Shown piece by piece: positions 1 to 11,478 of a stretch of 64,000 bases of DNA. The number at the start of each line of letters is the position of its first letter. The stretch's first letter is position 1. A model generated the notes under the pieces. The model saw nothing but the letters and a program-made list of their open reading frames with translations. It had not been told where the DNA came from and did not search any database. Source of the DNA: an uncultured cyanobacterium (GTDB taxonomy: Bacteria > Cyanobacteriota > Cyanobacteriia > Cyanobacteriales > Nostocaceae); the NCBI GenBank assembly GCA_963706595.1, contig OY970166.1, forward strand, positions 4,576,001-4,640,000, read 5' to 3'. A program made the translations under genes and the position numbers.

Positions 1-118
1 TTTCAGCTACAGACCGCAGCATATAAACGTATACCGATTTCGCCCCTTGCCCTCGTCCTTGTCCGGATTCAAATAAAACCGTTGCTCGTGGTCCAATCTT
101 TTTTCGTTGTGTTGCCAT
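1..118 (-). CDS. Hypothetical protein, 5' part only (MATQRKKIGPRATVLFESGQGRGQGAKSVYVYMLRSVAE...), runs off the left edge
   Basis: ATG at 118 preceded by GGAG. Frame is open to position 1 and co-oriented with the upstream operon. Confidence 0.65.
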   Translation of the reverse strand, partial: MATQRKKIGPRATVLFESGQGRGQGAKSVYVYMLRSVAE

Positions 119-147
119 TCAATTGCTCCAATGCTTAGTAATGGTTT

Positions 148-1167
148 TTAGAGATAATCAATTGCGATGATCACAACGTCACCATTGCCGGCGGCTTCAG
201 AGGTAAAAGGAATATTTGCGCTGATAGTGGCGACTCCAGCTTCCAGGTCGAATTGGACCTGAACGTTGTCCGGCTGGGAATCAGTGGGAACCACAAGTTT
301 TTCACTAGCAGCCAACAAAGTAGAAATTTCAATGAAGGCTTCCATGATAGTACTAGACTTTAGATCACCGCCGCCATTGACAAAACCAGAATAAGTAGAA
401 CCCAAGTAATCTTGTGCAACAATTTTGGTAGAACCATCTGTTTGTGCAGTTGCAATAATAGGAATTGTTGCTGCAACTGAAATAGTTCCAGTGTCGAACG
501 AAACGGTGGTAGCTAGGTTTCTTCGTGGGGTTAGTCCTGGGTTAGCTCCATTCCGAGCTTGTTCTGCCGCATCCATAGCCCTGGCCACTTCAAAGAATGC
601 CGATGGAATTTGTGTAGCGTTTAAAGTTCCCGCAGTTCCTGGGTCAAATGTACTCATTCGTTCCTCGCTGTAAAAAATGTAGTAACCGTATTTGTAATCA
701 GTTGTAGCCCGGAATTGTCCCAAATTGGCGGGGACAAACCAATCTAGATTCTTTGGGCTTAAGGTCGAAGAACCCACCGCAGTTAAAGAGACTGAACCGG
801 GAATAAATAACTTATTCTGCCGAAATACTAAATTAAATGCGGATTTCGAGAAAAAATCTTGAATTGGTGGTGGTACATTATCAATTACTTCCTGCCAGTC
901 AATGCTTGCAGTTTTTCCATTGGGGAATGTAATCGATGGGGCAGACTGGCTTTTGTTAGAACTTTTAGTTTTGACTATAGGAGTCTTAGGGAGTAAAATA
1001 TACCAATTTCGTTTCCATTTGTAAGCTATAGCTATCCCTTTCTTTAGCAGTCTCTTGAATAGCTTTAATAAATAAGTGTCTGCAAAATTGGTTATTTTAG
1101 CGAGGTCAGATAATTTAATTGCTAAATGCCCATTGATAACATAAATTTCAAATAGTTCTACCCTCAT
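148..1167 (-). CDS. Hypothetical protein; basic wHTH-like N-half plus a two-repeat C-half, probably also translated from an internal ATG at 657
   Basis: 339-aa ORF. GAGGAA precedes the in-frame ATG at 657. The last 169 aa are two ~80-aa repeats ending AQDYL and AIDYL. Confidence 0.7.
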   Translation of the reverse strand: MRVELFEIYVINGHLAIKLSDLAKITNFADTYLLKLFKRLLKKGIAIAYKWKRNWYILLPKTPIVKTKSSNKSQSAPSITFPNGKTASIDWQEVIDNVPPPIQDFFSKSAFNLVFRQNKLFIPGSVSLTAVGSSTLSPKNLDWFVPANLGQFRATTDYKYGYYIFYSEERMSTFDPGTAGTLNATQIPSAFFEVARAMDAAEQARNGANPGLTPRRNLATTVSFDTGTISVAATIPIIATAQTDGSTKIVAQDYLGSTYSGFVNGGGDLKSSTIMEAFIEISTLLAASEKLVVPTDSQPDNVQVQFDLEAGVATISANIPFTSEAAGNGDVVIIAIDYL

Positions 1168-3920
1168 GATTTCTTTTTATCTTTATCTCTCAAAGACAAA
1201 CTCCAAGTAGGCATATTATCTTTCTGCCCAGTTTTGAAGAAATGCACTCTAACCGGAACTACACGAACTTGTTTGTAGACTCCAGGGCGTTCGCCAATCT
1301 TGGGCGGTTGAATGTCTTTTAGGTATTTAGGGGCAATGTATGCTTTGAAAGCATTAATTACCCTCGTACATTCCGTCTTACTTTTCGCATTGATAATTAC
1401 TTTTGAATTATCATTAAGAACCAGAATTCCTTCAAAGTTTCCTTTTTCATATTGAGGAAATTTAGGCTTGAAATCCTTTCCTTTATTGTAGTGAGGAATT
1501 GTTATAGCCCATCGACTGCGACCAATTTTACCATCTTCAAAAACCTCAGCGTATTGAATGACTAACTGCGGACGCTGAAAAACTCGCACTTGCCACCACT
1601 CAGGAGTCACTAAATAGGAATCTTCATTATTTTTAGCTTCACATAATTTTGTGTTAGCCTTAGCCATCTCGGCATAAGAATTGCGAACTTTATTTATTTC
1701 ATTTCCTGTGGAGGTTGCCAAAACTTTGATTGTTATTTCCTTAGTTTCAGGTGTCCATACACCATCGCTTTCAGTACAAAGAATAGTATCAACTTTTATC
1801 TCTACCCAAGAAATATTAGAGGTGCATCGCTGTACTTGAGTACTAGTTTGATTCACAACATTAGTCAAACTATTGACTTGGTTATTAGTTGCATTGGTAA
1901 CGTTGGTCAGATTAGTGACTTGGTTATTAGTTGCATTGGTAACGTTGGTCAGATTAGTGACTTGGTTATTAGTTGCATTGGTAACGTTGGTCAGATTAGT
2001 GACTTGGTTATTAGTTGCATTGGTAACGTTGGTCAGATTAGTGACTTGGTTATTAGTTGCATTGGTAACGTTGGTCAGATTAGTGACTTGGTTATTCGTT
2101 GCGTTGGTAACGTTGGTCAGATTAGTGACTTGGTTATTAGTTGCATTGGTAACGTTGGTCAGATTAGTGACTTGGTTATTCGTTGCGTTGGTAACATTGG
2201 TCAAGTTGCTGACTTGGTTATTAGTTGCGTTGGTAACATTGGTCAAGTTGGTGACTTGAGTACCAAGTTTTGTAATATTTTGATTTGCATTATTAACTAT
2301 ATTTCCAGTATTTATAACTGTTGGTCTGAGAGCGGTGACAGCACTAGCAGTAGCCAATGAAGTAGTATTTAGTGCCACAGCCTGACCTTGTAAAGCTGCT
2401 ACTTGTCCCTGTAAAGCTGCTACTTGTCCTTGCAAAGCAAATACTTGAGTTGTGACAGGAACGATGGCCGCAGTTTGCGCAACCGTAGCTAGTGGCGATG
2501 CCTGATACCACATATTTAAGCCTTCAGGAAAGCATTTACCATTTGTCATTTCCTGGCATAATGCTTCCTGCATTGCGCTAGGCAATGCGTCTGTTTTTAG
2601 CCGAATATTATTGCTCAATACCTCTACGTTGGTTATTTTTGATTGCAAAACACCCAAAGCACCAAATATACCAGCTAATTCTGCCATATTAAATTTGCCA
2701 TCCTTACCACGCTGACCAGTCAAACCACGCTGACCAGTCAAACCACGTTCTCCAGTCAAACCACGCTGACCAGTCAAACCACGTTCTCCAGTCAAACCAC
2801 GCTGACCAGTCAAACCACGCTGACCAGTCAAACCACGCTGACCAGTCAAACCACGCTGACCAGTCAAACCACGTTCTCCAGTCAAACCACGCTGACCAGT
2901 CAAACCACGCTGACCAGTCAAACCACGTTCTCCAGTCAAACCACGCTGACCAGTCAAACCACGCTGACCAGTCAAACCACGCTGACCAGTCAAACCACGT
3001 TCTCCAGTCAAACCACGCTGACCAGTCAAACCACGTTCTCCAGTCAAACCACGCTGACCAGTCAAACCACGCTGACCAGTCAAACCACGCTGACCAGTCA
3101 AACCACGCTGACCAGTCAAACCACGTTCTCCAGTCAAACCACGCTGACCAGTCAAACCACGCTGACCAGTCAAACCACGTTCTCCAGTCAAACCACGCTG
3201 ACCAGTCAAACCACGCTGACCAGTCAAACCACGCTGACCAGTCAAACCACGTTCTCCAGTCAAACCACGCTGACCAGTCAAACCACGCTGACCAGTCAAA
3301 CCACGTTCTCCAGTCAAACCACGCTGACCAGTCAAACCACGCTGACCAGTCAAACCACGCTGACCAGTCAAACCACGCTGACCAGTCAAACCACGCTGAC
3401 CAGTCAAACCACGCTGACCAGTCAAACCACGTTCCCCCTGAAGTCCTCGCGGTCCGGGGATAGCTTTTGCTCTTAGTGCCGATTCAGCCGTAGCTAATGC
3501 TTGATTGGCAGTATTTTTAATGGGTAAAAGTAATCCCAGCACGCGAGAAATATCAGCCCCAAGCGCTGATAAACCACGCTCTACAGCATCAATTCTCGCC
3601 CCTAGTACTTGCAGTGCTGCAATTGATGCCAAGATTCCCGTAATAGTAAATGCTAATGCGGCGACCTTAGTCGCGGCGGCGGCGGCGGCGGCGGCGGCTC
3701 CCTTGGCGATTGCTTCTATAGCGAGAAATTTTATTGCCAGCCCTGCGATCGCAGCTGCTATTAATTGCTCGGTACGAGGCATGATTAGAGCCTCAGCCCC
3801 GGCTATGGAAGATTGGATAATTTGAGGTTTTTCACTCTTCAGAACATACTTTCCATCCAGGGCGGCGATCGCCGCACTCAAAGCAGCAATTTCGCCCGAT
3901 ATTTCGTTACAAGAACTCAC
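1164..3920 (-). CDS. Collagen-like / coiled-coil fibre protein (putative phage-like fibre or spike)
   Basis: 918 aa: Ala-rich helical N-terminus, 40 x GLTG(Q/E)R, 9 x 14-aa heptad-pair repeat, globular C-terminus. Confidence 0.8.
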   Translation of the reverse strand: MSSCNEISGEIAALSAAIAALDGKYVLKSEKPQIIQSSIAGAEALIMPRTEQLIAAAIAGLAIKFLAIEAIAKGAAAAAAAAATKVAALAFTITGILASIAALQVLGARIDAVERGLSALGADISRVLGLLLPIKNTANQALATAESALRAKAIPGPRGLQGERGLTGQRGLTGQRGLTGQRGLTGQRGLTGQRGLTGQRGLTGERGLTGQRGLTGQRGLTGERGLTGQRGLTGQRGLTGQRGLTGERGLTGQRGLTGQRGLTGERGLTGQRGLTGQRGLTGQRGLTGQRGLTGERGLTGQRGLTGERGLTGQRGLTGQRGLTGQRGLTGERGLTGQRGLTGQRGLTGERGLTGQRGLTGQRGLTGQRGLTGQRGLTGERGLTGQRGLTGERGLTGQRGLTGQRGKDGKFNMAELAGIFGALGVLQSKITNVEVLSNNIRLKTDALPSAMQEALCQEMTNGKCFPEGLNMWYQASPLATVAQTAAIVPVTTQVFALQGQVAALQGQVAALQGQAVALNTTSLATASAVTALRPTVINTGNIVNNANQNITKLGTQVTNLTNVTNATNNQVSNLTNVTNATNNQVTNLTNVTNATNNQVTNLTNVTNATNNQVTNLTNVTNATNNQVTNLTNVTNATNNQVTNLTNVTNATNNQVTNLTNVTNATNNQVTNLTNVTNATNNQVNSLTNVVNQTSTQVQRCTSNISWVEIKVDTILCTESDGVWTPETKEITIKVLATSTGNEINKVRNSYAEMAKANTKLCEAKNNEDSYLVTPEWWQVRVFQRPQLVIQYAEVFEDGKIGRSRWAITIPHYNKGKDFKPKFPQYEKGNFEGILVLNDNSKVIINAKSKTECTRVINAFKAYIAPKYLKDIQPPKIGERPGVYKQVRVVPVRVHFFKTGQKDNMPTWSLSLRDKDKKKS
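1875..2252 (-). repeat. 9 x 42-bp coding tandem repeat (NLTNVTNATNNQVT)
   Basis: Unit gacttggttattagttgcattggtaacgttggtcagattagt repeated head to tail with few variants. Confidence 0.95.
2709..3428 (-). repeat. 40 x 18-bp coding tandem repeat (GLTGQR/GLTGER collagen triplets)
   Basis: Only two unit types, acgctgaccagtcaaacc and acgttctccagtcaaacc. Confidence 0.95.
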
Positions 3921-4277
3921 TCATTTAATCCCCGCGATTTGTGCGCGCAATGCCGACAATTCATTGAAAATACGCTTGCAATCCAAGCAGCAATCGCCGC
4001 AGTCCAGGTTATTAGGCGGGCAAGGCGATTCACACTCTGTACAGCTACCAGAGGTATTTCCGGATATTGGAGCGCTAGTTCTTGCTTCGGATAAGCTCTG
4101 AGTACCGCTCCGATAGTAATACCAATGAGCCACTTGCCGGACTCCATCTACTATCAGATGGTATCCCAGTCCATTGAAGGAGTAAGATGCGGCATATCCA
4201 CAAGCAAAATGCTCGTAATAAGCATCATTATTGACACCTTGTCCTGAAAATCGCCAGCATTTCTTAGCCGCCGCCAT
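3921..4277 (-). CDS. Small Cys-rich hypothetical protein
   Basis: 118 aa with CxxCxxxC and CxxCCxxC clusters; tightly coupled to both neighbours. Confidence 0.7.
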   Translation of the reverse strand: MAAAKKCWRFSGQGVNNDAYYEHFACGYAASYSFNGLGYHLIVDGVRQVAHWYYYRSGTQSLSEARTSAPISGNTSGSCTECESPCPPNNLDCGDCCLDCKRIFNELSALRAQIAGIK

Positions 4278-4630
4278 TAGTAATCATTCGGATCGCGAAC
4301 GTTGTCCGTGGATGGTTTCCACAAGTTAATCGTTATGGGGTCGTTTCTGTATTCAATTGCGGGTTCACCCCGTTGGGTGATATTTGAAAATCCATCTTCA
4401 AGCACAATTGACTGCTCAAGATTAGTCTCAAAGTTAGCTGGTGATAAATAAGCTTTAGCACCCAAAACAATACTGACTAAATGTCCTTCAGCTGTTGCCG
4501 TTTCTGGAGTCGTCAACCCAGATGCCACTAACGCACTATCGGGAATGAATAACCCTGCCTCTGGTGCTGGGTGTGTCACCGCTAAACGTACTGCCCCAAT
4601 GCCAAAAATTTGAGGGATGGTTGGTTCCAT
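4277..4630 (-). CDS. Hypothetical protein, putative small structural protein of the element
   Basis: 117-aa first gene of the leftward operon (MEPTIPQIFG...DPNDY); stop overlaps the next start. Confidence 0.7.
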   Translation of the reverse strand: MEPTIPQIFGIGAVRLAVTHPAPEAGLFIPDSALVASGLTTPETATAEGHLVSIVLGAKAYLSPANFETNLEQSIVLEDGFSNITQRGEPAIEYRNDPITINLWKPSTDNVRDPNDY

Positions 4631-4831
4631 GAATCTTTATCAATATTGTTAATACATAATTAATAATTCAATACATCAATGATGTAAACTTCCACTTTTA
4701 TGTAAAACTGGAACAATTATTAATACGCTCAAACTATTGGCACTACTGGGTTTGATGGCTACACTAATGATATCTGAAATATCAAATATTCCAGATTAAC
4801 CAATTAGGATGGTTAAAGATGAAGTGATTTT

Positions 4832-5413
4832 ATGAAAAACAACAGGCATGGACAAGCTGAAATTTTAACTAATTCGGAATTTTATAAAATTCGCCAACAC
4901 ATTAAAAGTAAAAAATATAAATTACTTCTTGACCTGGCGTGGTACACGGGGGAGAGGTGGGGCGCAATTACAAAATTAAAAGTTGAAGATGTCTATAATT
5001 CTGATGGTAGCCCTAGATGTGAGATTACTTTTCGTGCTGCCACACGCAAAGCCGCGCCAGACGGAGTAAGAAAAACTAGACAGTTACCAGTTCATACTGT
5101 TCTGGAAGAGTCGTTATTATCCTACAAGCCGGAATTTAACTCTGTTTGGTTGTTCCCGTGTCGGGATGGGTTGAAGCCGATTAGCTTCAAATGGGCAGAT
5201 TTGATTTTTCGCACTGCCGTAGAAAATGCTGGACTAGCCACCAAGGGGATTAGTACCCATAGCACCCGCCGGACTTTCATTACCAAACTGCACAGGCAAG
5301 GCACAGATTTGTACACAATAAAGAAAATTACAGGACACCAAGATTTTAAATCACTAGAAAAATACGTAGAAATTGATTGCGATCGCGTCAAAGGCGCTAT
5401 CAACACATTGTGA
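4832..5413 (+). CDS. Tyrosine recombinase, catalytic domain only
   Basis: YTGERW (R), HSTRR (HxxR), TGH and EKY (Y) motifs; 193 aa with no N-terminal binding domain. Confidence 0.9.
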   Translation: MKNNRHGQAEILTNSEFYKIRQHIKSKKYKLLLDLAWYTGERWGAITKLKVEDVYNSDGSPRCEITFRAATRKAAPDGVRKTRQLPVHTVLEESLLSYKPEFNSVWLFPCRDGLKPISFKWADLIFRTAVENAGLATKGISTHSTRRTFITKLHRQGTDLYTIKKITGHQDFKSLEKYVEIDCDRVKGAINTL

Positions 5414-5495
5414 TATATTTGTACTAGTAAACTGGCTGATAAGATGCACCCCTGAATGAGGAAATATGGTCTAGCGCGTAGACCATACCTTTTTT

Positions 5496-6365
5496 TCAAA
5501 GCTTGTAACCATTCATGCCAAAACCACCGCGAATGAAGTTTTTAATTTCACTCGGCGATTTACCCTGCGCAATCGCACTCTCAACCATCTGCTTTCTATC
5601 AATGGCCATCGGATTTTCATAATTTCCCCCAGGAATATGGATGTGATGAATCCCACGCACATAGTAGCAATACCGGAAATACCAGTGCTTTACACCTGAA
5701 CGCTTAACATAATATTCCTCAACCCATTGGTTATTACGTTGTTCTGGAAGAGTAGGAGTGTGCGGTTGTAAATCTTGTTCTGGAAGTTCTGGAAAAGGAA
5801 GAGTGAGTTCTATAAAATCACCATCGTTAAAGTCTGACTCTTCCAGAACATCGTCCAAAGCACGGGACATCATTTCATCCCGGTCAGGTGGCGGAACTCT
5901 CTCACCTGGGTAAGTTTCATTTATGAACTCAATCGCGTCAAGTTCAGCATCCAAATGGGTGTTGTAGTTGCCCTGGAAAGTTCCACAGAGCAGGTAGTCA
6001 TCGTAGACAGTCCATTGAATTTGGTTGTTAGGTAATTTAAAAAACTTGCAAGTATAACCACGGTAATTCTTCTGCCACCGATGCTTTTCATCAGATGTCG
6101 TAGTGTCTACATTAGGTTCTTCCAGAACACTGAATCCTTCTGGCATCGGAAACCGTGACTGCCAATCACTAAACCGCAATTCAAACTCTGCAAGTGAATC
6201 ACAATCGTCTGGCTCTGGTGGTTCTTGGGAATCGTCGTAAAAAAGTGTGAGTTGACCGTTCTCATCTCTTCCAGAAAACTCAGCGTCTAGTATTACTTCA
6301 TCCCAAAAAGGATCATGAACAGTCTTGACGGTGGTGTACTGCTCAACGTCGAATAATAGTGTCAT
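5496..6365 (-). CDS. Hypothetical protein of the mobile element (acidic PPEPDD N-terminus, HHIHIPGGN C-terminal domain)
   Basis: 289-aa ORF directly downstream of the HTH gene. Confidence 0.7.
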   Translation of the reverse strand: MTLLFDVEQYTTVKTVHDPFWDEVILDAEFSGRDENGQLTLFYDDSQEPPEPDDCDSLAEFELRFSDWQSRFPMPEGFSVLEEPNVDTTTSDEKHRWQKNYRGYTCKFFKLPNNQIQWTVYDDYLLCGTFQGNYNTHLDAELDAIEFINETYPGERVPPPDRDEMMSRALDDVLEESDFNDGDFIELTLPFPELPEQDLQPHTPTLPEQRNNQWVEEYYVKRSGVKHWYFRYCYYVRGIHHIHIPGGNYENPMAIDRKQMVESAIAQGKSPSEIKNFIRGGFGMNGYKL

Positions 6366-6368
6366 TGG

Positions 6369-7256
6369 TTATTGGTTATTGGTTATCAGTCGTTGGGGAT
6401 ATCGCTGCATCATTTCTTTGAGGTCGTGGGGATTACCGTCATTGTCATACACCGTCACCCCTCCTGAAATAGCACTGACAATTCCTTGTTGCCTCGCCCA
6501 ATTGAACCAGATGCTCAATTCAGAAGTCACTGTGTTCTTAGGCTTCTCCCCAGTTTTGCAGCTGTTGATGAATAAGCCTGTGGGATTGCTGCACCACCCT
6601 TCATTAACTGCTTCTTTTACACGAGCTACAGCACTGGCGACATTGCCCCAGTATTTCTTGATTACACCCAAGCAAGGTTCTGGGTTAATCCTCAGTGTTC
6701 TTAATTCAATGCAAACCTGCCCAACTTCAGCTTTAGTAGGCGCTGCGGGTGCAATTACCTCATGCTCTTGTTCAATTTCTTGTTCATGATCATCAATGAA
6801 AGTTTCCTCAACAGCAGTGTTGTTTTCTTTTAAACTACTTAAGTTAGTTTTATATGTTGCGACATTTCCAGCAGGTACTTGTGGAATAATTGGCACGTCT
6901 GTGTGAAATATTTCGCATCGTTGAGAATCTACATCTGGCGCGATTCTTTCAAGATTCAACCTGTACTGACTGGCAGTATCTTTGGGAAAGCAGTGTGACG
7001 GCTGCTCATCCAAAATCCCATCAAAGACCAATTCTTTGATGTGCCGGCTGATGGTTGCCCGGCAGTAACCCAGGATGTCCGCTAGGTCTTCAAAGGTAAC
7101 TCTCACCCATTCGTGCTTGTAGTAAAGTTTGCCGTCAAACCAGGACAAGATAGCCGCCTTGCACTTCTGGCGACGGTTGAATGTGGCTAAAAATTCTCTG
7201 AGAATGTTGATAGGGGTATTAATTTCGCCAAAGGTGGCGGAGGTAAAGTTTGTCAC
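6369..7256 (-). CDS. HTH-containing putative replication initiator
   Basis: VTFEDLADILGYCRATISRHIKELV wHTH motif; GGAGG before the GTG start; C-terminal NPTGLF motif. Confidence 0.6.
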   Translation of the reverse strand: MTNFTSATFGEINTPINILREFLATFNRRQKCKAAILSWFDGKLYYKHEWVRVTFEDLADILGYCRATISRHIKELVFDGILDEQPSHCFPKDTASQYRLNLERIAPDVDSQRCEIFHTDVPIIPQVPAGNVATYKTNLSSLKENNTAVEETFIDDHEQEIEQEHEVIAPAAPTKAEVGQVCIELRTLRINPEPCLGVIKKYWGNVASAVARVKEAVNEGWCSNPTGLFINSCKTGEKPKNTVTSELSIWFNWARQQGIVSAISGGVTVYDNDGNPHDLKEMMQRYPQRLITNNQ

Positions 7257-7324
7257 TGCTAATACCTCCGTGCTAATTGAGTCGAAAATGTGGGAATACT
7301 CATGAGGTAGCTACTGGAGTTGAG

Positions 7325-7594
7325 ATGGGTGATAAATTTGGTTTAAGCCCCAGTGATGTTGTGTCTATGGATGAAGACAAAAGCATTGTTGGAAGCACGT
7401 TTAAAGTCAAGGAAATGCTTCTTAGCCTAGCCGATAGGTCAATCAACGATGACTTTATTACTCAGTGGATAGGGACAGGAGTAGAGTGTGAGGTTTTGAT
7501 CAGTGGGCAGGACTGGCGGAAGGGCAAAGTGAGAATTTCTCTGGAGTTCATTCCTGACCAGCCACTGTCACCACTTGATGATCTGCGGGAATAA
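7325..7594 (+). CDS. KGK domain protein
   Basis: GVECEVL...WRKGKVRISLEFIPD signature; GGAG upstream of ATG 7325. Confidence 0.8.
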   Translation: MGDKFGLSPSDVVSMDEDKSIVGSTFKVKEMLLSLADRSINDDFITQWIGTGVECEVLISGQDWRKGKVRISLEFIPDQPLSPLDDLRE

Positions 7595-7615
7595 CTGAAA
7601 TAGTCACCACGAAAA

Positions 7616-7646
7616 AACCGTCCTGACCTGTGGTAGGTGGACGGTT
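7616..7646. terminator. Hairpin between convergent genes
   Basis: AACCGTCC (7616-7623) / GGACGGTT (7639-7646), with an A-run on the left side. Confidence 0.6.
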
Positions 7647-7979
7647 CTATTCAGAATCTTGAATTTCGGAAATCTGCTTTAACTCTTCAATTCTTTGTCT
7701 CAGAAGGCTTGCTTGTTGTTCATGATATGCCAGCTGTTTGTCAGCCTCACAAATTAGCTGGCTGAGAAGTTTCCCAGCGATTCCTTCAACCGACTCCCCT
7801 CTGAGGACAGATATATCTGACTTGTGGCTATCTTCTCCACAAGCTCTGATCTGGTAAGTCCCATGCTCTGTGCTAACTCCTGAAAAAGTTCCCAAGCATC
7901 GGGATTCACTTTTAAGCTTACCCCCTTGGTTTCCCGTCCTTTGGGCCGTCCCGTTCTCGCCATAGTAATTGTCCTGCAT
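7647..7979 (-). CDS. Hypothetical protein with C-terminal coiled coil, overlapping the RHH gene in another frame
   Basis: 110-aa ORF; C-terminus GKLLSQLICEADKQLAYHEQQASLLRQRIEELKQ is heptad-like. Confidence 0.45.
   Translation of the reverse strand: MQDNYYGENGTAQRTGNQGGKLKSESRCLGTFSGVSTEHGTYQIRACGEDSHKSDISVLRGESVEGIAGKLLSQLICEADKQLAYHEQQASLLRQRIEELKQISEIQDSE
7754..7963 (-). CDS. Ribbon-helix-helix (CopG-like) regulator
   Basis: KGVSLKVNPDAWELFQELAQSMGLTRSELVEKI fits the beta-alpha-alpha RHH pattern. Confidence 0.75.
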   Translation of the reverse strand: MARTGRPKGRETKGVSLKVNPDAWELFQELAQSMGLTRSELVEKIATSQIYLSSEGSRLKESLGNFSAS

Positions 7980-7996
7980 AATATTCTGCTTTTAAT

Positions 7997-8086
7997 TATT
8001 GCATATCCAAAAATCCATTAATTAATATTGACACAGGATATCTGGATATGCAATAGTAAGATTGTTGGATTTTTGGATATCCAATA
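7997..8086. promoter_or_regulatory. Divergent promoter region with three ~20-bp operator-like boxes
   Basis: Boxes at 7997-8017 (inverted), 8036-8055 and 8066-8086, consensus GGATwTyTGGATATsCAATA; TTGACA at 8028-8033. Confidence 0.65.
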
Positions 8087-8427
8087 GCTCCCACCCCACA
8101 CCGGGGATTACCACACGGAGCAAGCACCCACGCCTAGAACTTGCGTGGAACAACCTTGACCAATGACTAATATCAGCGCTTGCGCTTCACCAAAGCGCTG
8201 CAAACTTGTTCTTTCATGGAGGGAAACTTAGACGACAATCATCAAAAAAACCAGGGATAAACACTCTTTTTTCATTTCCCCAGTAAAGGCTAATTACTGG
8301 GGTTTCTCCCTAACACAAGCCAATTTGTCACTGAATTTATAAGGTTTTCTTGGTGGTGTTGCGGCATCACCAAGTTTCTCATAATGTCTGCGTTAATGTC
8401 TGCATTGCACATATAACCATCAAAACT

Positions 8428-8586
8428 ATGAGCTATAAACAAGCCTCACCCTGGGCTGTCTTTAGAGTAGAAGATTTTGGAAATCTTTTACTAACAAGAT
8501 TCCGCAAGCGTAGCGACGCTGATGAATATGCAAAACTTCTCAGAAACAACACACCCTACAAAATTGAGGTGGTATTCGACGTATGA
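8428..8586 (+). CDS. Small hypothetical protein (52 aa)
   Basis: MSYKQASPWAVFR...RFRKRSDADEY...EVVFDV; stop overlaps the next ATG (ATGA). Confidence 0.65.
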   Translation: MSYKQASPWAVFRVEDFGNLLLTRFRKRSDADEYAKLLRNNTPYKIEVVFDV

Positions 8587-8867
8587 CACAAAAATCACTA
8601 TTACCCTACGATGGCAATTACGCTTTAATTCACAAGCGGACGCTACTGGTTAACAGTATGGTTTTGACTGCGATGACAGAATTTATCTCGCAAAATTCAT
8701 CTATCACAAGCGAACAACTAGCTCTACTGTTTGGTGAAACTGCTAATAAAATTGTTGCTGCTATGTCCGATGAAACAGTCAATGCCAACGCTTGCGGCTT
8801 AATTTCAAAGTCCATCATAAACAATGGCGTTTCTTCATTTGTTGAATACCATTCCAGTAAAGAATAA
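8583..8867 (+). CDS. Hypothetical protein
   Basis: 94-aa ORF in the operon. Confidence 0.55.
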   Translation: MTQKSLLPYDGNYALIHKRTLLVNSMVLTAMTEFISQNSSITSEQLALLFGETANKIVAAMSDETVNANACGLISKSIINNGVSSFVEYHSSKE

Positions 8868-8871
8868 CATC

Positions 8872-9240
8872 ATGAAAATTAAAACTATCACTTATCAACG
8901 AGTTCTCAACCTGGGGAATTATGAAAGCAAGCGGTTAGACATGACTATCGAAGTTGACGCAAATCTTGAATTTGCAGAAGAAGAATGCTCCATCCTCATG
9001 GAATCTGTAGAGCGTAAAATTCGAGAAGAATCTGAGGCTTTAATTCTCAATGAAATTAGAGATGCCAGAAAAAAACTGCGTGAAGTTAACAAGGAAATTG
9101 AAGCGGGTAAGCAACTTTTAGCAGAAATAGGAAAGGAATTAAACCCGGACATCGAGCCAGGACTTTCACCTTATGAAATAGCAGAAATCGACCGTAAAGT
9201 TAGAAAGGAGGCATATCTTAACCCTGACGAAGACTTTTAA
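8872..9240 (+). CDS. Hypothetical phage-like protein
   Basis: MKIKTITYQRVLNLGNYESKRL N-terminal motif followed by a coiled coil. Confidence 0.7.
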   Translation: MKIKTITYQRVLNLGNYESKRLDMTIEVDANLEFAEEECSILMESVERKIREESEALILNEIRDARKKLREVNKEIEAGKQLLAEIGKELNPDIEPGLSPYEIAEIDRKVRKEAYLNPDEDF

Positions 9241-9247
9241 GATTTAG

Positions 9248-9283
9248 GCGATCGCACAGTTTGGAGGAGTGCGATCGCTTTTC
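9248..9283 (+). terminator. Intrinsic terminator whose stem is formed by two HIP1 sites
   Basis: GCGATCGCAC (9248-9257) / GTGCGATCGC (9269-9278), followed by TTTT. Confidence 0.6.
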
Positions 9284-9287
9284 TTCC

Positions 9288-9316
9288 TTGCCAGGATAAT
9301 GAAACAAATATAACTT
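9288..9316 (+). promoter_or_regulatory. Putative sigma70-type promoter for the bridge RNA/recombinase
   Basis: TTGCCA (9288-9293), 17-bp spacer, TAACTT (9311-9316). Confidence 0.45.
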
Positions 9317-9321
9317 AAAAC

Positions 9322-9552
9322 CGCCTGAACGAGCCGGACTAACTCACCGGCGAAACGTGAGCGCTCACGTCGCGGACTGAGTTCGCAGCACATCAACTTA
9401 GGGCTTTGTTAGTGAATTAAGCTCTTGTGGCTTTCCCATCTTCGTAAGCTCGGTTGATGTGTTTTTGTGTCCCCAGTGTTTGCAGCACTGGAAGCTTTGA
9501 GACTGAATTAGGCTCTTTGGCCTTTGGGTGATTCACAAGCTGTAAGACACAA
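9322..9552 (+). ncRNA. Putative IS110 bridge RNA (5' stem-loop, target-binding loop, donor-binding loop)
   Basis: 5' hairpin 9341-9383. Loop 1 is closed by GCACATCAAC/GTTGATGTGT, loop 2 by TGTGTC/GACACA. Both have the layout GCTT-TG-[8-nt guide]-TT-A(A/G)GC..GC(T/C)T-[guide]-AAGC. Guides match the downstream junction. Confidence 0.8.
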
Positions 9553-9583
9553 TTCACACACCTACTCTAAGGATGAAAACTGA

Positions 9584-10771
9584 ATGACTAGAATTGTTGG
9601 GTTGGATGTTTCCAAGTCAAGTGTTTCGTGCTGTCTATTGGAGGAAAAGCCAAGGAATCCAAGAGAATTTTACTATGAATACCCCTTCAAAAAGTTTCAA
9701 AGTGATAAATTTGGATTATTGGCATTAATGGCATTGCGGCCAGAAGTTGCAATTCTTGAACCGACGGGAGTGAATTACTCCAAATTCTGGACAGAACATT
9801 TATCTCGTGCCGGGGTAGAAGTTCGCTTCGTAGGACACAAAGAACTCAGGAGTTACCGCGAAAATCACTTGGGACTGCCAGATAAAGATGATGATGCCGA
9901 CTCGTTGGCGCTGGCTTGTTATCAGTTCGACTATGGAAAAGATTTGAGCCGGTTCGTCCGGGTACGCGATCGCTTAATTTCCCGAACGAGGGAAGCAGTG
10001 CTGCGGCTTAGTCATCTTAACCGAATACAATCCCCCATCATCAACCGCATCCGTCAGGATTTGGCATGGCAGTTCCCAGAAGTTGCGCTTGTCCGTTCAA
10101 TTCGGTGTTCTGGAAGAGTGCCTTTACTTTGGGGATGGCTAGCTGGTCAGCGTGAAAGTAAAAAATATGATCGCATTTACGCCACCACCGCAGGATTAGG
10201 ATTAACCGATTCGGTAAGGTTTCACGCGCAGCGCATTTGTAGCTTACAGGCAGAAGAGCAAATTTTAGAAGATGAACTAGCAGAAATTCTCATAGATGAA
10301 CGGTTCACTCGTTACCGTGATATTTTCGCAAATTTCCAGTTTGGGGAGAGACTGCAAGCTGTGATTCTCTCCCAAATTTACCCCTTAGAAAATTTCTTGG
10401 GTGAGGATGGTAAACCAGAAATCAAAATCCGCAAAGGTAGGAAATCTGGTAAACCAACCAAACGCCACCTGTCACTAAGGCGATTTCAGAAAGCTTTGGG
10501 TGTAGCGCCTTCTCAAGAATCAAGCGGCGATATTTCTAAATCTAAAGTTTCCGGTGGATCGGCTTTGTGCCGTCGCGCCCTTTGGCAGTGGGTTTTTAGT
10601 GCAGTTGAACCTGCCAAACGCCGCACGAATCCCATGTTAAAAGAATTGGGAGAATTTCTTGATACCGAGAAATTAGCAGGCAAACCAGTCAAACTGGTAC
10701 GAATGCGAGTAGCTGTTAAAGCTGTAAAGCTGTTATTTAAAATGTTGACTAGTAACGTTATCAGTCAATAA
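9584..10771 (+). CDS. IS110-family DEDD recombinase (bridge recombinase)
   Basis: N-terminal GLDVSK, LEPTG and KDDDADS (RuvC-like DEDD); C-terminal GVAPSQESSG motif with the catalytic Ser. Confidence 0.9.
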   Translation: MTRIVGLDVSKSSVSCCLLEEKPRNPREFYYEYPFKKFQSDKFGLLALMALRPEVAILEPTGVNYSKFWTEHLSRAGVEVRFVGHKELRSYRENHLGLPDKDDDADSLALACYQFDYGKDLSRFVRVRDRLISRTREAVLRLSHLNRIQSPIINRIRQDLAWQFPEVALVRSIRCSGRVPLLWGWLAGQRESKKYDRIYATTAGLGLTDSVRFHAQRICSLQAEEQILEDELAEILIDERFTRYRDIFANFQFGERLQAVILSQIYPLENFLGEDGKPEIKIRKGRKSGKPTKRHLSLRRFQKALGVAPSQESSGDISKSKVSGGSALCRRALWQWVFSAVEPAKRRTNPMLKELGEFLDTEKLAGKPVKLVRMRVAVKAVKLLFKMLTSNVISQ

Positions 10772-10833
10772 CACAATGGTGGCGTAGGGAGTCGGTACAA
10801 TACACGTAACAATTACGCCGCCACTATTTTATT

Positions 10834-10846
10834 AGACTGAAGATGG
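10834..10846 (+). other. Right junction (attR-like): donor-left AGACT + core GAA + target-right GATGG
   Basis: AGACTGAA equals guide 9500-9507; GAAGATGG is the reverse complement of guide 9436-9443. Confidence 0.8.
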
Positions 10847-10872: not shown

Positions 10873-11478
10873 ATGCTCGAAAATCGAGACTATACACTCA
10901 TTATCGACAAAAGCGGTAGTATGGCTACCCCAGATCAGAAAGGTGGTAGAACTAGATGGGTATCAGCACAAGAATCTACCCTAGCCTTAGCGAGTAAGTG
11001 CGAGCAATTTGATCCAGATGGCATCACTGTATATTTATTTTCTGGTAGATTCAAGCGCTACGATAATGTTACAGCCGCTAAAGTAACACAAATCTTTAAA
11101 GAAAATGACCCCTCTGGTTCTACAGATTTAGCAGGTGTGTTGAAACACGCCACGGATGATTACTTTCAACGTAAGAATGCGGGTCAAACGAAGCCCAATG
11201 GTGAAATTATTTTGGTAGTTACTGACGGCGAACCGGATGACCGTAAAGCGGTAATGAAGGTAATTATTGAAGCTTCTCGCCGGATGGATAATGATGAGGA
11301 ACTAGGTATTTCCTTCATTCAAGTTGGTACAGATGCACAAGCTACTCGCTTTCTGAAAGTGTTAGATGATGACCTCCAAGGTGCTGGAGCAAAATTTGAT
11401 ATCTGCGACACAATTACAATGGATGATATGGAGGATTTAAGTTTATCGGAAGTGCTACTAAATGCCATTACGGACTAG
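10873..11478 (+). CDS. von Willebrand factor A domain protein
   Basis: DKSGSM MIDAS motif and VTDGEP. Confidence 0.9.
   Translation: MLENRDYTLIIDKSGSMATPDQKGGRTRWVSAQESTLALASKCEQFDPDGITVYLFSGRFKRYDNVTAAKVTQIFKENDPSGSTDLAGVLKHATDDYFQRKNAGQTKPNGEIILVVTDGEPDDRKAVMKVIIEASRRMDNDEELGISFIQVGTDAQATRFLKVLDDDLQGAGAKFDICDTITMDDMEDLSLSEVLLNAITD

Follow-up and report, generated by a model that had tools for sequence, protein, structure and literature searches.

The closest described relatives of the locus treated here are the bridge recombinase systems of the IS110 family of insertion sequences (IS). According to the published account of IS621 (Durrant et al. 2024, PMC11208160), a bridge RNA encoded 5' of the recombinase gene forms a target loop and a donor loop, in which the left target and left donor guides (LTG and LDG) read the left halves of the two sites, and the right target and right donor guides (RTG and RDG) read the right halves. 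The core is contained within every guide, and recombination leaves hybrid junctions of the left target–core–right donor (LT-core-RD) and left donor–core–right target (LD-core-RT) types, with no long duplication (PMC11208160). Larger forms have been reported in the main text of Hu, Xie, Yang and Rubin (bioRxiv August 2026, 10.64898/2026.08.14.744561), who describe natural cargo-bearing IS110 elements reaching ~100 kb and the recovery of a 9,177-bp circle, some of their loci looking like replicating plasmids. Filamentous prophages with a terminal IS110-family transposase are also on record, namely Nf/MDA of Neisseria (Kawai et al. 2005, as cited in PMC7058167) and phiOH16/Zuza of Thermus (PMC11437467). 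The subject of the present analysis is an 11.7-kb element of an uncultured cyanobacterium of the Nostocaceae (assembly GCA_963706595.1). Most of it lies within the stretch of 64,000 nucleotides that was analysed (contig OY970166.1, positions 4,576,001 to 4,640,000, hereafter the window), and it ends with an IS110-family recombinase gene preceded by a two-loop RNA.

Comparison with related genomes indicates that positions -847 to 10841, counted from the start of the window, very probably constitute a single integrative element, which would be integrated by the IS110-family recombinase that it encodes, under the guidance of the bridge RNA adjoining that gene upstream. The evidence comes from the insertion site and its two hybrid junctions, from the recombinase and its RNA, and from eleven further elements.

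The element and its insertion site

The genome is complete (5.57 Mb), and comparison with relatives delimits the element to window positions -847 (genome position 4575153) to 10841, a length of 11,689 bp. Its cargo starts 847 bp before the first base of the window, and positions 1..10841 (no strand assigned) are the part of the element body that the window contains. A preliminary description of the window had placed an IS110 recombinase gene at the end of a cargo region, with a hybrid junction 63 bp after its stop codon, and both statements proved accurate. The recombinase gene is the last of the element, the right end of which is found 70 bp after the stop codon. This right end with its junction (10772..10846, forward strand) reads ...ttattAGACTGAA|GATGGcaaag, the shared core GAA occupying positions 10839-10841. 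The junction itself, AGACTGAAGATGG (10834-10846), starts 63 bp past the stop codon, agrees with the guide prediction at 13 of 13 positions and is the sole exact copy of this sequence in the window and in the whole 5.57-Mb genome.

The predicted left junction, TTAGTGAATCACC, had been reported as absent from the window, which is the case: its 19 window matches at up to three mismatches compare with 19.5 expected, none of them has fewer than two mismatches, and the one with two is the donor loop itself. No exact copy of this 13-mer exists in the whole genome either. The actual left junction, ATAGTGAATCCCC, is located outside the window at -860..-843, at the boundary 847 bp to its left, and agrees with the prediction at 11 of 13 positions. 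It is laid out as ttgctatagtGAA|TCCCCaatag, that is, ATAGTGAA followed by TCCCC, the donor-side sequence after the boundary being TCCCCaatagtc. The two deviating bases are the first one, which is the native target base, as in the relatives, and a C where RDG would pair with an A. The left half of the target site is thus retained in this genome (L002 19140-19152) and is followed by TCCCCaatagtc.

An empty site ~27 bp upstream of the vWA gene, which the preliminary description had foreseen in related genomes, was found there. The Rieske and vWA genes are adjacent in 10/10 relatives of the same genus; in all ten, the 1.2-1.4 kb upstream of vWA correspond to a Rieske-gene region that is 11.8 kb distant from vWA in the present genome and ends ~1 kb to the left of the window. 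In nine of these ten relatives the Rieske-vWA site is uninterrupted and reads ttgctatagtGAA|GATGGcaaag (the empty site of G001 being ttgctatagtGAAGATGGcaaag), with the target site ~27 bp upstream of the vWA start codon. The vWA gene (10873..11478, forward strand) is a flanking host gene, outside the element. No relative was seen that has the cargo at this site and lacks the IS110 gene. The only sequence common to both ends of the element is TGAA, and there is no att-type direct repeat. For this element as well as for 11 further ones, the site of insertion fits LTG and RTG, and the junctions are the LT-core-RD and LD-core-RT hybrids.

Further out, the left flank is composed of housekeeping genes (uvrC, rlmN, a ubiquitin-like operon and a gene for Ap4A phosphorylase). 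The operon, which encodes ThiF-like E1, ubiquitin-like, E2-like and JAB proteins (L002 12254-14861, window -7747 to -5140), is 4 kb to the left of the element and unrelated to it. tRNA genes were also considered as targets; neither the window nor the 40 kb on its left side contains one. In genome G006 (L034 19330-19365), the same site upstream of vWA holds only ~25 bp of an element right end (...ccaccaataatctactAGACTGAA|GATGG), the left half of the target being gone. This remnant resembles the scar of an earlier insertion, with an end that appears closer to the G007/G009 type than to that of the present genome. To note, the Rieske-vWA spacer of several relatives (L008 and L009, ~1240-1440) harbors short repeats, ~110-150 bp in length, with dozens of matches across the present genome; they resemble miniature transposable elements, and the spacer is hence variable aside from the IS110 site.

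The IS110-family recombinase

The last gene of the element (9584..10771, forward strand) encodes an IS110-family DEDD recombinase, or bridge recombinase, of 395 residues, as identified with NCBIfam, Pfam and fold comparison. Residues 3-389 match the NCBIfam model NF051857 ("IS110 family transposase") with 532 bits for a cut-off of 180, and this match and the fold search confirm the preliminary identification. The C-terminal Pfam domain Transposase_20 passes its cut-off (25.0 versus 21.3), and the N-terminal DEDD_Tnp_IS110 is found below its own (25.1 bits, cut-off 29). A search of the PDB sequences with the recombinase profile returned no match even at E 10. A model was built with AlphaFold2 on 29 homologues (predicted local distance difference test, pLDDT, 87.6), and its ten best PDB fold matches obtained with Foldseek are the IS621 and ISCro4 recombinase–bridge RNA complexes (E ~2e-9). 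Residues D8, E59, D103, D106 and the S314-G315-D316 segment, which we take to correspond to the catalytic residues, are invariant among 29 recombinase sequences. The protein is a member of the IS110 family with, as modelled, the fold of IS621.

The recombinase gene is single-copy and is the only IS110-family gene of the genome; the stand-alone copies elsewhere in the genome that would have spoken against the preliminary description were not seen. Homologues are present in 8 of 41 related genomes, this one counted. A collection of species representatives yielded 157 stretches with recombinase homologues, the best 80 of which all belong to cyanobacterial records, most of them bearing Nostocales names.

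The bridge RNA and its guides

The bridge RNA (9321..9546, forward strand) possesses two loops, whose guides read as the preliminary description had written them; its first base is 10,168 bp away from the left boundary of the element. The first, target-binding loop holds the guides TTAGTGAA (9409-9416) and CCATCTTC (9436-9443), and the donor-binding loop holds LDG AGACTGAA (9500-9507) and RDG GGTGATTC (9527-9534). From 56 distinct homologous RNA sequences that were extracted, 40 were aligned. They exhibit a conserved scaffold of two modules, each comprising a stem, an internal loop and a hairpin. The named structure pairs in 95.3% of the cells of this alignment, as compared to 27-45% when the partners are slid, and 26 of its 49 pairs display compensatory change. 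The fold of the single sequence is not distinctive (z -1.5), and the structure rests on the alignment.

The variability of the two loops differs strongly. The target guides are hypervariable in the five bases before GAA and in those before TTC on the other side of the loop, to the point that 55 distinct LTG/RTG pairs are found among 59 loci. The donor loop is near-invariant (AGA[C/G/A]TGAA and GGTGATTC), with C/G/A variation at one position only. The RNA therefore associates a variable target-binding loop with a donor-binding loop that matches the ends of the element. Rfam 15 has no family at gathering score in the window, and no relevant match was obtained at E <=10 in the window or in eight related loci. 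At 9247-9285, a GC-rich hairpin with a T run after it is seen by eye, which the terminator scan does not list.

A hammerhead-like motif at the 5' end

The 5' end of the bridge RNA harbors a hammerhead-ribozyme-like motif with a type I layout (9321..9375, forward strand), CCGC-CUGAACGA-[stem II]-GAAAC-[stem III]-GUC|GCGG, for which a cut is predicted between 9371 and 9372. In its canonical form, the start of the RNA is CCGC-CUGAUGA-[hairpin]-GAAAC-[hairpin]-GUC-GCGG. The type I hammerhead core is conserved across the 40 aligned RNAs (alignment A2, columns 1-111), with core bases kept in 36-40 of them: C3 in 38, U4 in 36, G5 and A6 in 40, G8 and A9 in 37, G12 and A13 in 39, and A14, A15.1 and U16.1 in 40. 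Position 7 is mixed, and position 17 is C in 37 sequences, A in three and never G. Compensatory change affects four of the five pairs of stem II and five of the seven pairs of stem III. Stem I is formed by 4 bp, one of which is a compensatory pair, with 90.6% pairing, and is reduced to 2 bp in 7 of the 40 sequences. The divergent element of genome G005 has the motif too.

Several features speak against a hammerhead identity: position U4 is occupied by C in 4 of the 40 sequences, stem I is short, the window copy has an extra core base, and the Rfam hammerhead models match neither the window nor eight related loci, whether at gathering score or with E relaxed to 5-10. Literature searches returned no report connecting hammerheads with bridge RNAs. 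If active, the motif would cut at 9371/9372 and thereby release the bridge RNA out of a longer transcript, which would suit an RNA that is no longer at the edge of its element. A nested IS was also considered at this position, the segment GGACTAACTCACC (9336-9348), donor-like at 10 of 13 positions, having been taken as an inner left end. It was discarded, as the segment is the loop of hammerhead stem II, conserved or covarying in the relatives.

Further elements of the family

Eleven further elements, located in chromosomes and in one case on a plasmid, were bounded: that of G009, split over two contigs, those of G005, G015 and G037, six loci extended leftward, and a copy on plasmid CP150887.1. 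Element sizes in the family range from 10.1 to 15.8 kb. The compact form of ~1.0-1.6 kb with the RNA at its left non-coding end is not what is seen here, and no stand-alone 1.5-kb copy of this subfamily was found. In the ten further elements of this recombinase type, 10-15 kb separate the RNA from an upstream 13-mer composed of the element's own LTG and TCCCC. Nine of them (G009, G037, G015, five of the six extended loci and CP150887.1) have this 13-mer without a mismatch and the tenth has it with one, for a chance of an exact match of ~3e-4 per locus by our own arithmetic. Their right junctions are exact in six cases and have one mismatch in four. In G005, the recombinase is only 35-43% identical and the guides are different; its predicted left junction is nevertheless matched at 14 of 15 positions, at the far end of a homologous cargo. 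Altogether, the far left flank fits the element's own LTG in 12/12 elements examined, at twelve different insertion sites. This match between guides and flanks supports the view, put forward in the preliminary description, that the recombinase acts as the RNA-programmed integrase of a large-cargo element.

Right junctions were also predicted from LDG and RTG for the 59 loci with a recognisable RNA, and were found exact in 37 and with one mismatch in 6. A left junction close to the RNA, an outcome that the preliminary description would have counted against itself, was seen in 0/30 related loci whose upstream flank extends over 9.5 kb or more, anywhere within that flank. A 10-mer left-junction test within 1.5 kb of the RNA matched in 3 of the 59 loci, which is about chance by our own estimate.

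Genome G045 possesses two copies of the element, 94-99% identical outside a ~5-kb module and inserted in unrelated flanks (L170+L149 and L171+L148). They share the same LTG, while their RTGs differ at three of the five variable bases, each copy fitting its own RTG flank at 7 of 8 positions; this difference suggests that guides change faster than the rest of the element. The 178-kb cyanobacterial plasmid CP150887.1 harbors a 10.1-kb member between mobC/relaxase and parM, with both junctions exact (L173 7042-17180), and this plasmid copy offers a route of spread via plasmid transfer.

Cargo genes

The element carries 15 cargo open reading frames (ORFs). Their order is collinear between elements: a leftward operon of long repetitive proteins and proteins without family assignment, a short tyrosine recombinase on the opposite strand, a 289-residue protein, a helix-turn-helix (HTH) protein, small ORFs, the RNA and the recombinase. 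Homology and gene order of this cargo are maintained even between elements with recombinases of only 35-65% identity. A survey of 33 loci with a full 10-kb flank bears out the expected co-occurrence of recombinase homologues with the same cargo genes, the tyrosine recombinase being present in 32 and the 289-residue protein in 27. The conserved tyrosine recombinase had escaped the preliminary description.

In the leftward operon, the gene at 148..1167 (reverse strand) encodes a 339-residue protein without family, whose 75 homologues all come from cyanobacterial records and are named "hypothetical". It returned nothing in Pfam, PHROGs and NCBIfam, and its model (pLDDT 68.8) matches nothing viral at E <0.001, while none of the PDB representatives attains Z 5. 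The following gene (1164..3920, reverse strand) encodes the "fibre" of the preliminary description, a 918-residue collagen-repeat protein (Pfam Collagen, E 1.5e-45); in this gene an 18-nt unit is repeated ~42 times in tandem, and a 42-nt unit occurs 10 times. The matches of the protein to PHROG tail fibres are all within the repeats (residues 74-431), and those to NCBIfam collagen-like adhesins are under the cut-off; the labels "phage-like" and "fibre", which rest on collagen-repeat matches, are not established. The collagen-like gene is prone to length variation, and its G005 counterpart is divided between two ORFs, of 509 and 254 residues. Two small proteins of 118 and 117 residues, without family, are encoded at 3921..4630 (reverse strand). 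The latter is found in 14 of the 33 surveyed loci and is common to the elements of G005 and G015.

The short tyrosine recombinase (4832..5413, forward strand) has 193 residues, is Xer-like and comprises the catalytic domain only. It matches Pfam Phage_integrase (E 8.7e-16) and the integrase family phrog_216 (E 1.6e-31), and its matches to the XerA/XerC/XerD-like models of NCBIfam are under the cut-offs. In all 32 loci in which it precedes IS110, it is on the forward strand, co-oriented with it. Since the ends of the element share only TGAA, this enzyme is not expected to be the integrase; our guess is that it resolves multimers of the circular form.

The conserved 289-residue protein (5496..6365, reverse strand) has for matches in the ESM Atlas only unnamed cyanobacterial clusters, with scores <0.9. 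Its gene holds most copies of a 12-14-bp motif, TGTTCTGGAAGAGT, of which the element contains seven, in both orientations (12-mer starts at window positions 5099, 5741, 5786, 5838, 6117, 6266 and 10107), one being in the IS110 gene. With up to one mismatch, 29 copies are found genome-wide, the seven of the element included, and the homologue of G005 has three. The set includes an 18-nt inverted pair, 83 nt apart. By analogy with origins located inside replication genes, these repeats may be iteron-like. They are most likely the "shared 14-mer" that the preliminary description had seen joining the recombinase gene to the cargo.

The adjacent gene (6369..7256, reverse strand) encodes a 295-residue HTH protein with a weak likeness to the phage initiator O (phrog_678, E 5.4e-5) and with Pfam HTH_Crp_2 and HTH_36 matches under the cut-off. 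Three small co-oriented ORFs of 78, 94 and 138 residues (8350..9240, forward strand) complete the cargo before the RNA, and their homologues precede IS110 in other elements. No resistance gene is found among the Pfam or NCBIfam matches of the element. The element of G037 harbors an extra cargo adjoining its left end, a TIR-domain protein (Pfam TIR_2, E 6e-23; L039 2708-3514).

Proposed mechanism

In the proposed mechanism, the two ends of the element would join in a circular form into the donor site AGACTGAA|TCCCC, which would be read by the invariant donor-binding loop, and the variable target-binding loop would read (T/A)TAGTGAA|GATGG upstream of vWA. The recombinase and its RNA would then recombine the donor AGACTGAATCCCC with the target ATAGTGAAGATGG, and strand exchange at the shared GAA core would yield both observed hybrid junctions. 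The RNA would probably derive from an internal transcript, its 5' end being trimmed by the hammerhead-like motif. Unlike in textbook IS110 elements, ~10.2 kb of conserved cargo separate the left boundary from the RNA, a geometry that makes a promoter rebuilt at the circle junction implausible for this RNA. The cargo itself resembles a small replicon, with its O-like initiator, iteron-like repeats and Xer-like tyrosine recombinase, to which a variable module of long repetitive proteins would be added; the circular form may replicate.

A broader proposal, which we advance tentatively and on which we would not wager, is that a widespread family of self-replicating cyanobacterial episomes of 10-16 kb, possibly a kind of virus not recognised so far, relies for its RNA-programmed integration on a dedicated, domesticated bridge recombinase, with a bridge RNA released from an internal transcript by a built-in hammerhead.

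Several observations weigh against the assignment of the whole element to its bridge recombinase. The evidence is all comparative, and neither a circle junction nor an excision product or a transcript was seen. A right junction was not found within 2.6 kb in 13 of the 59 loci, and three more had too little sequence. The right end of G005 fits its guides poorly (7 of 8 positions for the right target half, only 6 of 9 for the left donor half). For the G009 element, the two flanking sequences are found 4.7 kb from each other in the present genome, not side by side, and thus provide a common neighbourhood only, not a clean empty site. The right donor half, TCCCC, differs at one position from the complement of RDG, TCACC, in all eleven elements of this recombinase type; discontinuous pairing between RDG and the right donor half is described for IS621 too (PMC11208160). 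The window copy of the hammerhead-like motif carries one extra core base, at the variable position 7, and a consensus scan found no promoter upstream of the RNA. A second, intact-looking recombinase, that of the tyrosine type, is conserved in the cargo. Finally, when viral contigs were searched for the pattern of the circle junction (TAGASTGAATCCCCA), 38 stretches were obtained, harboring no protein of the element except one fragment of tyrosine recombinase, 25% identical, and these were rejected as chance matches.

Alternative explanations

The alternative that survives best, although we hold it to be unlikely, is that the cargo is a true temperate virus, i.e. a prophage using a bridge recombinase as its integrase, in parallel to the filamentous phages of Neisseria (Nf) and Thermus. 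Prophages ending with an IS110 transposase provide a precedent in the accounts consulted (PMC7058167, PMC11437467). The gene layout is phage-like, with a leftward "structural" operon, divergent regulators and an O-like initiator. Relatives encode a lectin-domain protein with matches to baseplate and virion-protein PHROGs (E 1e-37 to 1e-20) and an 853-residue protein with a weak tape-measure match (E 9e-9). The ~5-kb module varies between near-identical copies, and receptor-binding genes often vary between close relatives. Conversely, searches of three elements with Pfam, PHROGs and NCBIfam revealed no capsid, portal, terminase, Zot-like or other packaging ATPase and no rolling-circle Rep. The recombinase has no match in 50,697 phage records, neither it nor the 339-residue family is found in IMG/VR, and the tail-fibre matches of the 918-residue protein are confined to its collagen repeats. 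The genes that define inoviruses include a Zot-like assembly ATPase and a rolling-circle Rep. These two hallmarks, as well as small coat proteins, were not found in the three elements, in which most cargo proteins match no family, so that remote homologues are possible. The phage-like nature of the element is therefore best described as unproven.

Much less probable is an "expanded" IS110 locus, in which an IS of 1.5 kb would have accreted neighbouring DNA stepwise via half-site matches, the large unit no longer moving as a whole. The main text of Hu et al. (10.64898/2026.08.14.744561) depicts such a size continuum, up to ~100 kb via progressive additions, with whole-unit mobility dropping with size, and the copy of the present genome is a single one. 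Yet both boundaries fit full guide pairs and not single half-sites. The collinearity of the cargo across recombinases of 35-65% identity argues for one old association that has spread as a unit. Two copies of 94-99% identity occupy different sites of one genome (G045), one copy resides on a plasmid, and twelve different insertion sites were seen.

Tyrosine recombinases are the usual integrases of islands, and the one at 4832-5413 is intact-looking, of the Phage_integrase family and conserved in 32/33 loci, but the idea that it is the true integrase of a prophage-like island, with IS110 and its RNA as a passenger IS at the island's edge, is disfavoured and the least credible of all: the ends share only TGAA without an att-type direct repeat, the left flank 10-15 kb from the RNA fits the element's own LTG in 12/12 elements, the left junction that a passenger IS would carry beside its RNA is seen in 0/30 loci, and the enzyme is a Xer-like catalytic domain of ~190 residues only.

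Implications

Bridge recombinases are being engineered for the insertion of large DNA, and integration by the element's own bridge recombinase, as preferred here, would mean that nature does so with a cargo of 10-16 kb. The guide RNA is far from the donor site and would work without a circle-junction promoter. The 55 natural target programmes associated with one invariant donor form a data set from which guide rules may be derived, and the family is a candidate tool for filamentous cyanobacteria. It also appears that the enzyme of an "insertion sequence" can serve in the long term as the integrase of a coherent mobile replicon, beyond recent cargo accretion. If the hammerhead-like motif cleaves, nature would have its own equivalent of the laboratory guide cassettes that are flanked by ribozymes. 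Should the domesticated-integrase proposal be true, the family would provide the first natural ribozyme-processed guide RNA of a recombinase, together with a ready-made system for large-cargo insertion endowed with dozens of natural target programmes.

Comparison with known systems

The element shares with IS621 and the IS110 group, as described in PMC11208160, a DEDD recombinase of the IS621 fold, a two-loop RNA 5' of its gene and hybrid junctions. The elements of the present family are larger, 10-16 kb as compared to ~1.3 kb for IS621, and ~10 kb of conserved genes are interposed between the left boundary and the RNA, which is not in the left non-coding end. The guides overlap by GAA instead of the CT dinucleotide reported for IS621, the 395-residue protein is too divergent for a sequence match to the PDB chains, and the hammerhead-like motif takes the place of the plain 5' stem-loop of the published IS621 RNA. 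This motif follows the order of the type I hammerhead (RF00163), stem I - CUGANGA - stem II - GAAA - stem III - UH - stem I. It differs from it by a stem I of 4 bp, the C at U4 in four of the 40 sequences, the lack of an Rfam match and the extra core base of the window copy.

Like the expanded loci of Hu et al., the family consists of natural IS110 elements of >1.5 kb with boundaries matching the guides of a bridge RNA, and with its 11,689 bp the present one is an IS110-bounded, cargo-bearing locus well over 2 kb. As presented in the main text of that report, the expanded loci result from progressive additions with mostly one-sided half-matches, and are mostly plasmid DNA enriched in antimicrobial-resistance genes. 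Here, neither such additions nor a resistance-rich plasmid cargo are observed: both ends match, the cargo is conserved and co-evolving, no resistance gene was detected, and filamentous cyanobacteria are the hosts. The string "cyanobacter" is absent from the main text, and the family may be in the supplements.

The prophages Nf/MDA and phiOH16/Zuza resemble the element in being proviruses of ~8 kb or larger with an IS110-family gene at one end, which is thought to integrate and excise them at a short specific site. They are recognisable inoviruses, whereas the inovirus genes searched for were not found here, and in the accounts consulted (PMC7058167, PMC11437467) their integration is not linked to a bridge RNA. 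Large-cargo IS110 elements and IS110-ended filamentous prophages have thus already been described, and bridge systems that naturally move a large cargo are already a published idea, as these sources attest. As judged from the sequences compared, the cyanobacterial family differs from them by its full guide matches on both sides, its conserved and co-evolving cargo, the internal position of its RNA and its hosts.

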